A stretch of 63,541 nt of DNA, filler included, from Octopus bimaculoides (lineage: Eukaryota): the NCBI RefSeq assembly GCF_001194135.2. It is 7 parts of 6 records of this genome, joined end to end, with 100 filler letters (N's around TTAATTAATTAA, not from the genome) between each part and the next. Parts side by side here need not be neighbours in the genome. Positions count along the whole stretch, not along the records: positions 24,621 to 39,332 come from NC_069009.1; positions 39,433 to 48,839 come from NC_069006.1; 5 more parts are not named here. One strand, given 5' to 3'. The notes beneath the pieces were generated by a model that did no database searches, was not told the origin of the DNA, and saw only the letters and a list, made by a program, of their open reading frames with translations. The position numbers and the translations under genes were made by a program. Every line of letters begins with the position of its first letter. Position 1 is the first letter of the stretch. Shown here in pieces: positions 24,952 through 40,340 of this stretch.

Positions 24952-24991
24952 ATTGGGTGACAAGATGACATTGAAAGCGGAAGTGACGTCA
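24952..24991 (+). promoter_or_regulatory. Candidate proximal promoter of ZNF-A: reverse CCAAT box plus overlapping ETS-CRE site
   Basis: ATTGG at 24952-24956 and GCGGAAGTGACGTCA at 24977-24991, immediately upstream of a CpG-richer exon ending at a CCG|GTAAGT donor. Confidence 0.7.
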
Positions 24992-24994
24992 GAG

Positions 24995-25167
24995 GATAAT
25001 GACAATCTGTTCGTGGATCAGAAAATTGTCTTTTTGGCCGTTGAAGACGCACGTTCGAGTCTCCTCCCCGGTGGCCACTGCAACCTGAATTTCTCTGCCT
25101 GTTTGATTTTGTAACTACTGCTTTACCGTTTCTGCGTCTTCCTTGTGATTGCCCTAACACAACCCCG
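24995..25167 (+). other. Putative non-coding first exon of ZNF-A (start approximate)
   Basis: Consensus donor gtaagt at 25168; polypyrimidine acceptor ...ttcttctgtaatttcag ends at 25357 and resembles the acceptors of the other three ZNF copies (ttcag|atta). Confidence 0.6.
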
Positions 25168-25440
25168 GTAAGTCTGATATTTACGTAAAAACAACGAATA
25201 ATTTCCTATTTGACGTTCGTAAAATCTAATTCGTTTTAGTTTCAATTTCGATTAGTATGTCTACTCTTTTTATTCTGAATCTCAACGATGTTGTACAGCA
25301 ACTTTTCATATATCCTTCATGTCTTACAATGTTTTGTTTTTTCTTCTGTAATTTCAGATTATTGATAACATTGGCATCAAAGAATTTCTTTACATCACCA
25401 GTATTTAATCATCTTTTAAAGACTAAAGGAAGATACACAC

Positions 25441-25998
25441 CAGTGGTTTCCAACCCTTTTTTTCTTATGGGTGCCTTTTGATGACTATTCTGTTCTGGTC
25501 GACCAATATAGCCATTTGATGTTTATAAACTACTTTCAAAATTCATATTTTGCTGTTCACACATTGACTTGTGTAGTTGAACTATGTAAAATGTTAGAGA
25601 AAGAAACTTAACTGTTTCTTGCCATAAATACATTTAAGAAAAAAAATTTTTTTTTCGTGAATCCTTAAAATACTACCATAGATCCCCAATTTACTGTTTT
25701 GCTTGTGTAGGCTCCTTTTGATTTCTATTCTGTTCTGGTGGACCCCTATAGCCATTTATTGTTTAAAAACTTGTTTTATAGAAACTTCTTTTAAAGTTCC
25801 TGTTTTGTTTCACACACACTAACTTGTGAAGAACGGACTCTGTAAGACATAAGAAAAAGTAATTTTACTGTTTCTTACAATAAATACATCTGAAGAAAAA
25901 ATTTTTCATGGACCTTTATGTTACTGCTGCGGATCCCCAATTTGCTATGTTGTTTTTGTAGATCTCTAAAAGTCTTACAAAAACCCCAGTTGAGAACC
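25441..25998. mobile_element. hAT-like MITE with an internal ~255-bp tandem duplication, in the ZNF-A 5' region
   Basis: Ends cagtggtttccaacc and agttgagaaccacc (hAT-type TIR); internal units ~25470-25710 and ~25715-25970 align. Confidence 0.55.
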
Positions 25999-26247
25999 AC
26001 CAATATACACAGAACATATATAACACTGTTTTGAGATTATTAGCAACGTTTCTCTACTTCACTGTTTGGAATGAGTACAAGATGATTTTTGCCTTCTCAT
26101 TAAATTTGCATTATAAAGGAGTTTGCCAAACGTTCACATAACAATAAAGAATATAAATGATGAAAGTATAGTAGCAGCAATGTATTTATTTATTGGCAAT
26201 CAACTATAAAATAAAGAAAAAAAATAAGCATTTGTGGGCAGGAAGTA

Positions 26248-26353
26248 ATCATCATCATCATCATCGTTTAACGTCCGCTTTCCATGCTAGCATGGGTTGG
26301 ACGATTTGACTGAGGACTGGTGCAACCGGATGGCTACACCAGGCTCCAATCTA
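26248..26353 (-). mobile_element. Reverse-oriented 3' end of an RTE-like LINE/SINE with a (GAT)n tail, directly before the ZNF-A start
   Basis: Near-identical reverse complement of ~39641-39750 (cagattggagcctggtgtagccatc...gcggacgttaaacgatgatgat). Confidence 0.9.
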
Positions 26354-27205
26354 ATTATGGAAAATGAATTGTATGAGAACGAAGGTGAATTTGATGCACA
26401 ATCTAAAAAGATTAACTCTCCTGATGGTATAAAGAAAGGAAGAGGTAAAATATATCAGTGTGATATCTGTGAGAAGATATTTTCTCAAAAGTGTAACCTC
26501 ACAATACACAGACGTACTCATACAGGAGACAAACCATATCACTGTGAGATATGTGGTAACTCATTCTCTCACAAGGGTAACTTAACATCTCACAAACGTA
26601 TTCATACTGGAGAAAAGCCATATCAGTGTGATATCTGTGGTAAATCATTCTCTCAAAAAGGTCACCTAATCACTCACCAGCTCATTCATACAGATGAAAA
26701 ACCATATCACTGTGATATCTGTGGTAAATCATATTCTCGTGAAATTACCTTAACAAGACACAACCGTATTCATACAGGAGAAAAACCATATCATTGTGAT
26801 GTCTGTGGTAAATCATTCTCACAAAAAGGCCACCTACTTACTCACCAACGTATTCATACAGAAGGAAAACCATATCACTGTGACATCTGTGGTAAATCAT
26901 TCTCTCGTGGAATTAACTTGACCAGGCACAAACGTATTCACACTGGAGAAAAACCATTCCAGTGTGATGTCTGTGGTAAATCATTCTCTGAATGTGGTGT
27001 CTTAACTTTACATGTACGTAGTCATACGGGAGAGAAACCATATCACTGTGATACCTGTGGTAAATCATTCTCTGGAGCAAGTACCTTAACTAAACACAAA
27101 CTCACTCACACAGGAGAGAAACCATTTCTCTGTTACATCTGTGGTAAATCATTCTCTCAAAAAATTCATTTAACTACACACGTAGGTGTTCATGCAGAAA
27201 AGTGA
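26330..27205 (+). CDS. ZNF-A: C2H2 zinc-finger protein, 9 fingers; ancestral start MENEL at 26357, TE-donated in-frame ATG at 26330
   Basis: Nine CxxC-x12-HxxxH units with TGEKP-type linkers and a short acidic N-terminus; stop TGA at 27203-27205; AATAAA at 27235. Confidence 0.95.
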
Positions 27206-37443: not shown

Positions 37444-38809
37444 TACTTGTGGTAAATCATTTTCTCAAAATAGCACTTTAACTAGTCACAAACGTTTTCA
37501 TACAGGAGAGAAGCTACATGGCGACATGTGGCAAATCATTTGCTCATAGAAGCAGCTTAATTACTCATATCAGCATTCAGATGACAGACAAACCACACCA
37601 GTGATCTTTCATCATTGTTTTCCTGTCCACTTTTGCCATGTTTTCATGGGTCAGATGGAATTTGTTGAGGTGGTGTGCCAGTTAAAGCCTGCTCACTGTA
37701 TTTGGTTACCTGATGTCAACAACAGTATGGATTTAAATGACACTGGATTTACTTGTGGAATTCCTTTGTGTTGGTAGAGTTTAACATACGAGAGAAAGAG
37801 AAGCAAAATAGAATTTACAAGACTATTATTCACTACGATCTTTTCAACCCATCATACATCAGTGCTTCACAGGTGAGATACAGTGCCGATGTGTCCTGTC
37901 AGGTGATTTGTCAAAAAGTACCTCATATTTTAATTTCTGATTTTCTTATTTCAATTGCAATACATTTTGGTATTTGGTATATGTCAAGCTTCTTGGAGAT
38001 TCCATCAATCAAATACTCTCCCAAGGCTTTGATTGGCCAGTCTGGGACTGAACCCAGAACCATGTGGTTGGGATGCAAAATTCTTACCACACGACCATGC
38101 CTGCACCTTTATGGTCATGTCTATATAAAAATGTAGTAAAACTTGCAATCTTTTAATTTCTCTAATCTCTAATTATCTTGTATGTTTGACACTGTTGTTT
38201 CTCTTTTCTTTCAGATTATAAAATGACATCTGCATCACAGAATTTTTATATAAACTACATCATTTGTATTGAAAGTCTTTTAAAGTCTGAGCAAGGATGT
38301 TATTCATAACACACATAACCTTGATTGTATGAATATATACTGAATTACTGCAAAATATATCTTCTGAACTGACATATATAGACAAATTTCTCTTTTTTAT
38401 TGTCTGGAATACACAGAAAATTATATTTGTATTTGAATTAATCCTTTAGCATTTAAACTGGCCATATAAGTCCCAAACATTCTAGCTATTCTAAGTTAAA
38501 ACTGCCCATATCTAGCCTCTTACACTCACCCTGCAATGTCATTCTAAACATAAAGGATCACATCATTGAAATCTTAAAGCAATAAGATAATGAATCATTA
38601 ATTCAAAAGAATTTGAATAAATAAGTATTACATTTGACAGAGTAATCTGAATGTTAATGAGTTAAAGTAATTAACAAGGCAGTTTGCAGCATCTTCAGAT
38701 ATTAACGAAGATTATTAATGACGGAGATATATCAGTAGAAATATTTGTTAACAGCAATATACAAGAAGAAGGAAAACATTTGTGCACTGTGACGAGAGAA
38801 AGGAAGATT

Positions 38810-39332
38810 ATGGAAAATGAATTATATTGGAGTGAAGATGAATATAAAAGAGAGTCTGAAGAAATTGATTTTCCTGATGATGTAAAGAATGAAAAGGGCA
38901 AAACATCATGTGATTGTGATACCTGTGGTAAGTCATTCTCTTGGAAAGCTAAGTTGGTCATTCACCAACGTTCTCATACAGGAGAAAAACCATATCACTG
39001 TCATATCTGTGGTAAATCATTTTCTCAAAGTTATCACTTAACTAGGCACAAACGCATTCATACAGGAGAGAAGCCATATCATTGCGATATCTGTGGTAAA
39101 TCCTTCTCTCGAAATGATCACTTATCTGAGCACAAAAGTGTTCATACAGGAGAAAAGCCATATCACTGTGAAACTTGTGGTAAATCTTTCACTCGAAACG
39201 ATTACTTAACTAGCCACAAGCGTGTTCATACAGGAGATAAGCCGTATCACTGTGAAATCTGTGGTAAATCTTTCTCTCAAGATAATCACTTAACTAAGCA
39301 CAAGCGTGTTCATACAGGAGAGAAGCCATATC
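38810..39332 (+). CDS. ZNF-D: C2H2 zinc-finger protein, at least 5 fingers, 3' end lost in a gap
   Basis: [24 protein letters not shown] followed by five intact fingers, ending at TGEKPY at the gap. Confidence 0.92.
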
Positions 39333-39504
39333 NNNNNNNNNNNNNNNNNNNNNNNNNNNNNNNNNNNNNNNNNNNNTTAATTAATTAANNNNNNNNNNNN
39401 NNNNNNNNNNNNNNNNNNNNNNNNNNNNNNNNATATATATATATATATATATGGATATCCCTATATATATATGGATATCTATATATATATATTGTGGCAT
39501 GTAA

Positions 39505-39750
39505 AATACACCATTTTGAGCGTGGCCATTGCCAGTACCACCTGACTGGCCTTTGTGCCGGTGGCACGTAAAAGCACCCACTACACTCTCGGAGTGGTTG
39601 GCATTAGGAAGGGCATCCAGCTGTAGAAACTCTGCCAAATCAGATTGGAGCCTGGTGTAGCCATCTGGTTTCACCAGTCCTCAGTCAAATCGTCCAACCC
39701 ATGCTAGCATGGAAAGCGGACGTTAAACGATGATGATGATGATGATGATG
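39505..39750 (+). mobile_element. RTE-like LINE/SINE 3' segment with a (GAT)n tail
   Basis: ...gttggcattaggaagggcatccagctgtagaaac...ccaacccatgctagcatggaaagcggacgttaaacgatgatgat. Confidence 0.7.
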
Positions 39751-39769
39751 AAGATGCACAGGATCCCTA

Positions 39770-40020
39770 AAACCATAGACTAGGGAAATTGATTTTCTCA
39801 AATGCCCTGGTGGCTCATTAGAAGTTGTAGATAATTTCTGCTACCTAGGGGACCAAATTAGTTGTGAGGGAAGATGCAAAGAGAGTGCAATAGCTAGAAT
39901 AAGAATAGGATGGAGTGAATTCAGAGAGCTTTTATCTCTGTTGGTTATGAAAGGTGTCTCTCTTTAAATGAAAGGGAGCTTGTACGATGCATGTATATGA
40001 ACAGCAATTCTACATGGTCA
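39770..40020 (+). mobile_element. RTE-clade RT C-terminal fragment
   Basis: SLEVVDNFCYLGDQIS...ARIRIGWSEFRELLSLL..KGVSL*MKGSLYDAC. Confidence 0.8.
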
Positions 40021-40225
40021 ACAGGATGGGTCAAACTTGGTAGAGATATATGCCACATGTTCAATTCAGACATTAGGATTGCCTGCATGGACCCATATGA
40101 CAGACCAACAACCTCAGCAATGTTTTTTCTCTATAAAAGAGTGGATAACAACAACAGCAGACAGGTTATCAATGGAGAGCTACTTAGTCACAGAGAAGGC
40201 AGTTTAATAAGAGAAGATTACTTAC

Positions 40226-40340
40226 AAATTGAAGATGTTTTAATGTCTATCTTTGGAAGACGTGGAGATGGTTTTTCCACATCACTGATGGCATCTAGAA
40301 GATTGAGTTTCTGTAACAGTGGAATAACATTTTTCCTTTG
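40226..40340 (-). CDS. CFAP74: CFAP74-like gene, exon 7 of 7 found (phase 0 to 1): QRKNVIPLLQKLNLLDAISDVEKPSPRLPKIDIKTSSI
   Basis: ttttctag acceptor and gtaagt donor; 115 nt; in phase with the previous exon. Low similarity on its own. Confidence 0.7.

Follow-up and report, generated by a model that had tools for sequence, protein, structure and literature searches.

A tandem C2H2 zinc-finger array assembled antisense beside the CFAP74 exons of Octopus bimaculoides: nested genes or an artefact of piece ordering?

Coleoid genomes are known to contain tandem arrays of C2H2 zinc-finger genes (PMC9068888), cephalopod C2H2 genes are described as mainly neural (PMC12513265), and it has been proposed in general terms that genes of this type target transposons (PMC10547256, PMC12513265). 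Nested genes, in turn, are common (PMC2151771, PMC13309782), and in pairs such as H13/Mcts2 (PMC13309782) and TMEM16C/MUC15 (PMC2151771) independent promoters operate within the intron of a larger gene. Both phenomena appear to meet in a 63,541-nt stretch of Octopus bimaculoides DNA that we analysed at its full length (hereafter the window): four plus-strand C2H2 open reading frames (ORFs; ZNF1 to ZNF4, 26357-39332) are placed opposite in strand to CFAP74 and downstream of the CFAP74 splice donor at 40226, with the next CFAP74 exon falling outside the window. CFAP74 is a protein of motile cilia. An initial annotation of this DNA took the array to be expanding antisense within a large CFAP74 intron. 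The octopus locus resembles the two described pairs in its independent promoters apparently contained in the intron of a larger gene (PMC13309782, PMC2151771), but its guest is a multi-copy array, its nesting rests on joins of unspecified size, and no interference between host and guest is shown. We lean slightly toward the view that the place of the array inside a CFAP74 intron is an artefact of the ordering of assembly pieces and consider this somewhat likelier than real nesting.

Sixteen runs of N interrupt the window. Six of them are joins with a fixed length of 100 bases, each carrying a 12-base marker that introduces stops in every frame, and the remaining ten are simple gaps of 22-769 N. 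The joins start at positions 20396, 24521, 39333, 48840, 58955, and 61489, and the pieces between them are 2-20 kb in size. The two joins bracketing the zinc-finger cluster (24521-24620 and 39333-39432), to which the initial annotation had already drawn attention as a caveat, were confirmed to be unsized 100-base gaps; what is thereby confirmed is the layout as assembled, and physical nesting is not established by it. All seven CFAP74 exons of the window (minus strand, 40226-47233) reside in a single marker-bounded piece of 9.4 kb (39433-48839), whose other end is formed by the join at 48840-48939. The last exon is separated from the end of this piece by 793 nt and the first exon from the opposite end by 1606 nt, and both distances lie within the size range of the six closed CFAP74 introns (228-2356 nt). 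Under nesting, this piece would be flanked by two giant introns, with minimum lengths of 40.2 kb and 16.3 kb, that begin at its very ends. Furthermore, both joins around the array interrupt features that do not resume on their far side: ZNF4 is cut in the middle of a linker at 39333-39432, and the GIY-YIG frame of a Penelope-like element is cut at 24521-24620, to the left of the zinc-finger piece.

A second line of evidence comes from the CpG content of the individual pieces. In octopus, DNA methylation is concentrated in gene bodies, including their introns, and the DNA between genes is depleted of it (PMC9476566). CpG per C amounted to 0.021 in the closed CFAP74 introns (20/958) and to 0.029 in the CFAP74 piece as a whole, whereas values of 0.151, 0.152, 0.165, and 0.157 were found in the four gene-free pieces (1-20395, 20496-24520, 48940-58954, and 59055-61488). 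In view of gene-body methylation (PMC9476566), these undepleted pieces look intergenic, although nesting would put them inside CFAP74. The change point on the right-hand side mapped to 48748-49225, and hence to the join at 48840-48939, with a step from 11/275 to 44/286 (p = 4e-6) that was missing from the GpC control. The CpG depletion that characterises the CFAP74 body thus does not extend beyond this join, and foreign pieces look interleaved with those of the gene. Within the zinc-finger piece, a near-unique and mostly RNA-silent stretch (32576-33547; 18/185) was also less CpG-depleted than the CFAP74 introns (p = 5e-6). On the sense strand of CFAP74, the T-over-A skew differed as well (+0.05 in the closed introns versus -0.05 in 48940-58954), a weak signal that is confounded by transposons. 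The rightmost piece (61589-63541) is partly CpG-depleted (0.07), a value compatible with either interpretation.

Proximity-ligation scaffolders are described as leaving unsized 100-N joins and as slotting small scaffolds into gaps, with more orientation errors (PMC5545040, PMC4772016). The window is like their products in its fixed 100-base joins, its pieces of 2-20 kb, and the presence of sized gaps of 22-769 N beside these joins; it differs in the 12-base marker, which the consulted portions of these two descriptions do not mention. Proximity-ligation scaffolding is a candidate origin of the joins. If the order of the pieces is indeed an artefact, a long-range scaffolding step would have put the zinc-finger piece and several gene-free pieces between those bearing CFAP74 exons, and the array would then probably be a chromosomal neighbour of CFAP74 instead of a passenger inside it. 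A unit consisting of a non-coding first exon, an intron, and a long coding exon would have been duplicated in tandem, with three copies keeping their promoter. Each of these promoters would drive its own transcription-factor gene, expression would need no input from CFAP74, and the copies would diverge through the gain and loss of fingers and through changes in DNA-contacting residues.

Several findings weigh against such an artefact. Across 39333-39432, where the array is joined to the CFAP74 piece, the CpG step is not significant (18/325 versus 1/74; p = 0.22), and a domain of low CpG content extends from the CFAP74 piece to about position 35300, as if the two pieces were adjacent; this continuity is explained equally well by methylated ZNF gene bodies. 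Both pieces also share a low content of simple repeats (0.045 and 0.055, compared with 0.07-0.23 elsewhere in the window). Octopus introns have a mean length of 5-6 kb in an annotation based on HiFi reads (PMC10925132 supplement) and a median of 2467 nt in O. vulgaris (PMC10700109), long transposon-rich introns may be unmethylated, and a CpG content that changes gradually may go unseen where a join is unsized. The PacBio HiFi assembly of O. bimaculoides described in PMC10925132 has a contig N50 of 0.86 Mb and 0.118% gaps. Moreover, full-length genome-based CFAP74 models exist for O. bimaculoides, so that the exon pieces are correctly ordered in the underlying assemblies, which argues for local order being often right. 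The A0A0L8 entry for CFAP74 derives from a genome annotation. Should the window stem from such an assembly, CFAP74 would span it there and the array would be nested on paper.

Some of these findings speak for passive nesting, in which an ancestral ZNF gene would have landed in a long CFAP74 intron and duplicated in place, with the copies relying on unmethylated promoters of their own and remaining largely independent of the host. This scenario matches the layout of the assembly, and it accommodates the missing CpG step next to the array, the similar repeat content of the two pieces, and the full-length CFAP74 models. On the other hand, it requires two giant introns around six short ones, a CpG step that happens to coincide with the other join, and a depleted gene body that nevertheless contains some 37 kb of DNA without depletion. 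We regard passive nesting as a tenable but less probable account, and we place real nesting of any kind, passive or regulatory, at somewhat less than an even chance. The probabilities that we attach to the competing interpretations are matters of judgement and not of computation.

The CFAP74 exons were placed by tblastn and by exact 7-mer peptide matching of the 1621-residue protein P0003 in all six frames of the whole window. Essentially letter for letter, they represent residues 182-471 of O. bimaculoides CFAP74, with 100% tblastn identity to protein P0001. In the order of transcription (all on the minus strand), they comprise 47129-47233 (residues 182-216; 100% tblastn identity to P0001, AG/GT ends), 45145-45315 (residues 216-273), 42678-42788 (residues 273-310; sequence match and splice ends), 41921-42020 (residues 310-343; found by tblastn, with a weak match at E = 1.1 to PDB entry 9ijj_C, which is named CFAP74), 41550-41692 (residues 344-391; 100% to P0001), 40780-40903 (residues 391-432; tblastn and splice ends), and 40226-40340 (residues 433-471). 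The second of these exons has a weak donor, and an alternative donor located 4 nt further on (exon 45141-45315) is used by the RefSeq isoform X3 (P0005), which starts in another frame there. As read from the sequence, the exons end in AG/GT and their phases agree with the CFAP74 protein. The last exon, preceded by an AG acceptor, is 115 nt long (38 x 3 + 1, and hence phase 1) and contains the codons of residues 433-470 as well as a single base of the codon for residue 471 (P0001/P0003); the perfect GTAAGT phase-1 donor that the initial annotation had ascribed to it on the minus strand is indeed present. When the exon 41552-41692 was used as a query, two proteins were recovered, isoform X2 of O. 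bimaculoides CFAP74 (100%) and the O. vulgaris orthologue P0002 (81%). The CFAP74 cluster lists seven records from three Octopus species, with lengths of 1382-1621 amino acids.

Compared with the CFAP74 proteins of O. bimaculoides (XP_014780586.1, XP_052832827.1), the exons of the window are identical to residues 182-471 and show no difference at the protein level. They amount to only 290 of the 1621 residues of the full protein, which carries the Ig-like CFAP74 domains PF24771, PF24770, PF24778, and PF24798 (Pfam; P0003); these begin at residue 536, fall outside of the exons in the window, and contribute none of their residues to it. Exact 7-mers covered residues 182-272 and 274-470 of P0003 only. 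No exon for any residue beyond 471 was detected by this matching in the sequenced bases of 1-40225, including the interval 39433-40225, where a next exon would have spoken against nesting, and none for residues 1-181 in the roughly 16 kb of 47234-63541. Thus, the identification of the gene as CFAP74, the lack of a continuing exon, and the placement of the remainder of the gene beyond the window, all claimed at the outset, were upheld by tblastn, the cluster records, and the 7-mer matching, while the gap on the other side, where residues 1-181 are missing, had gone unnoticed in that first reading.

There would be no large intron at all if CFAP74 ended here or if its next exon were hidden in the adjacent gap. 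Read-through past the 40226 donor meets a stop after three codons, an ATTAAA hexamer is present at 40208 on the minus strand, and the adjacent join is unsized. However, chance alone would produce about 0.5 hexamers of this kind over the same stretch, and all seven CFAP74 records listed, from three species, run past residue 471 through the same junction, which makes the termination of transcripts near 40100 unlikely. In addition, the proteins of O. bimaculoides and O. sinensis are 92% identical without a gap over 1621 amino acids, and genome-based models could presumably not contain an exon that lies in Ns. We consider an early end or a hidden exon very improbable. As the ATTAAA hexamer occurs at chance level, we dismissed intronic polyadenylation near 40200. 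Among the matches listed, no RNA run covered 39800-43030; the small shares of runs X15-X20 on that stretch did not enter the analysis.

The zinc-finger array itself is made up of ordinary tandem octopus C2H2 zinc-finger coding regions. Its four ORFs contain a total of 39 canonical fingers with canonical linkers, nine of them in ZNF1, 11 (plus one degenerate finger) in ZNF2, 14 in ZNF3, and five in ZNF4. No effector domain was recognised in the array; neither KRAB nor SCAN nor BTB was among the Pfam matches listed. A predicted non-coding first exon of ZNF1 (24998-25167, start approximate) lies in a CpG-rich promoter region (observed/expected ratio of 1.31) and is followed by a donor at 25168, an acceptor ending at 25357, and the ORF at 26357-27205 (282 amino acids). 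The end of the predicted first exon of ZNF2 and its intron (29192-29484; donor at 29200, acceptor ending at 29484) contain a motif common to ZNF3, and the ORF (369 amino acids) occupies 30113-31222. For ZNF3, the corresponding region is predicted at 34472-35372 (donor at 34480, acceptor ending at 35372), and the ORF at 35969-37443 displays its 14 fingers around an internal gap of 152 N. Each of these three donors is situated in or beside a CpG-rich stretch, and ZNF1-3 have the same architecture, with a donor, an intron, a shared acceptor, and then one long exon that holds the 5' untranslated region (UTR) together with the entire ORF.

The ZNF4 unit (37884-39332) departs from this architecture. 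The copied segment starts near 37884, matching 34616 within the ZNF3 intron, and comprises a copy of the intron end, an acceptor ending at 38214, and a coding exon that starts at 38810 and is truncated by the join. Neither an exon-1 motif nor a CpG island was found upstream of its acceptor, so that ZNF4 may be either a promoterless copy or an alternative last exon of ZNF3 reached by splicing from the putative donor at 34480 to the acceptor at 38214. The start codon common to all four ZNFs lies at 30106 in ZNF2, where an additional A in a tract of seven (30106-30156) limits its frame to 16 codons; a second ATG seven bases on (30113) opens the 369-residue finger frame. This shift may reflect either a genuine lesion or an assembly error. 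The four ZNF genes originally reported do exist as four plus-strand C2H2 ORFs, with the refinement that ZNF4 lacks a separate first exon and is cut by a join, and that the conserved start of ZNF2 is out of frame. In ZNF3, a three-finger block is repeated (within 36545-37356) with 238/252 bases alike, and the flanks of the internal gap are identical in 156/156 bases; the copy number of the block is uncertain for this reason, and one of the copies may stem from overlapping assembly sequence.

Between ZNF2, ZNF3, and ZNF4, the regions upstream of the ORFs are 87.0-91.4% identical in pairwise comparisons over 631-767 aligned bases, whereas the coding DNA of ZNF1 reaches only about 73% identity. 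The proposal of a recently expanding array thus fits ZNF2-4 but not ZNF1, which appears to be older than the other three. We infer that the three-part unit described above was duplicated locally and in tandem to give rise to the array. A single finger is 100% identical at the DNA level between ZNF2 (30716-30778) and ZNF3 (36293-36355), with neighbouring fingers being 86-90% alike; such a pattern is suggestive of gene conversion or of strong constraint. The array is like the described coleoid C2H2 expansion (PMC9068888, PMC12513265) in its tandem multi-finger ORFs on one strand, its canonical linkers, and the gain and loss of fingers between copies; with four units, one of them without a first exon, it is small and not a major cluster. 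Database searches were uninformative as to annotation or novelty: the N-terminus of ZNF1 yielded four candidates and no match, the 120 of 2709 matches to ZNF2 that were listed did not exceed 57% identity or carry an octopus name, a search among representative sequences listed at least 150 long multi-finger proteins, the best local identity among all 277 proteins compared was 65%, and exact protein look-ups for the array ORFs came back empty in 15 of 15 cases.

Two copies of a high-copy element resembling a short interspersed nuclear element (26248-26356 and 39638-39746) are 97% identical and lie on opposite strands. The former ends exactly at the ZNF1 start codon and adds an in-frame upstream ATG at 26330.

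Four sequencing runs were placed on 24800-39376: X1 (DNA), X15 (RNA by guess), and X21 and X23 (raw RNA); this comparison drew on 15 of 507 joints and on 12 of 17 indels, and repeats dominate it. Eight listed unique pieces of X1 had a depth of 45-60, and the ZNF block is thus real, single-copy sequence. X15 contributed pieces over the 5' UTR of ZNF1, the 3' UTR of ZNF2 (31129-31971), and the 3' part of ZNF3 (37448-37872), which supports transcription of three ZNF units. In its record 9, 249 of 418 letters end at the predicted ZNF1 acceptor, leaving 169 letters, approximately the size of the predicted exon 1. The X15 bin at 32576-33061 was nearly empty (0.16); because such libraries need not cover introns, we do not count this against nesting.

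These runs also bear on regulatory nesting, in which the transcription of CFAP74, in cells that are ciliated or form sperm, would shut down the promoters of the ZNFs through polymerase collision or would form ADAR-edited duplexes with their transcripts. Array and CFAP74 are on opposite strands, interference between a host and its nested gene has been demonstrated at mouse H13/Mcts2 (PMC13309782), RNA editing is extensive in coleoids (PMC9068888), and, with cephalopod C2H2 genes being mainly neural (PMC12513265) and CFAP74 being a protein of motile cilia, expression may be reciprocal. Reciprocal expression would, however, itself restrict the formation of duplexes. Furthermore, A>G and T>C changes did not exceed C>T and G>A changes in either of the two raw RNA runs over 24800-39376 (35 and 29 versus 37 and 27 in X21; 33 and 30 versus 39 and 37 in X23), a weak test built mostly on repeat sites, with tissues unstated, unstranded libraries (first mates about equal on both strands), and no matched DNA; the DNA run X1 gave 18 and 22 versus 21 and 21. 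The transcriptional interference, sense-antisense duplexes, and ADAR substrates envisaged in the initial annotation consequently found no support. Nothing that we observed requires CFAP74 transcription for the ZNFs, nor does anything support interference or ADAR duplexes. Regulatory nesting strikes us as improbable, and the same low standing applies to the composite idea of an array expanding in a CFAP74 intron whose host switches off or edits the ZNFs while one promoter chooses between the last exons of ZNF3 and ZNF4.

Outside of 24621-48839, 102 open frames gave six Pfam matches, five of the transposon type and one weak, low-complexity match below the cut-off; there is accordingly no second host gene with which the order of the pieces might be tested. 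Transposon remnants lie at 2-448 (endonuclease domain), 11180-12038 (mariner transposase), 22202-22642 (DUF7083), and 23975-24520 (the join-cut GIY-YIG frame). Palindromic short elements with inverted repeats, similar to miniature transposons, are found at 17848-18103, 35128-35318, 47811-47945, and 62701-62944.

Literature searches for CFAP74 with octopus, and for nested intronic zinc fingers or ADAR in cephalopods, found nothing in print on this locus, with most subscription journals lying outside their reach. CFAP74 was not found in the supplements of PMC9712504, PMC9476566 (files 1-12 and 16 of 22), PMC9815951, PMC10925132, and PMC12513265, and a text search for the join marker listed matches that are unrelated by title. 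CFAP74 is annotated, and tandem C2H2 arrays and nested genes are already known, so the sole unusual feature of the locus is the one that rests on unsized joins.

If, as we slightly favour, the nesting is an artefact of piece ordering, the locus would serve as a warning against taking the order of genes on either side of an unsized join in draft scaffolds of cephalopods as biology, and the CpG depletion of each piece would offer a cheap check. If the nesting is true, the array would add one more set of nested genes and would provide a defined locus at which the effect of host transcription on the expansion and expression of C2H2 genes in cephalopods may be studied.

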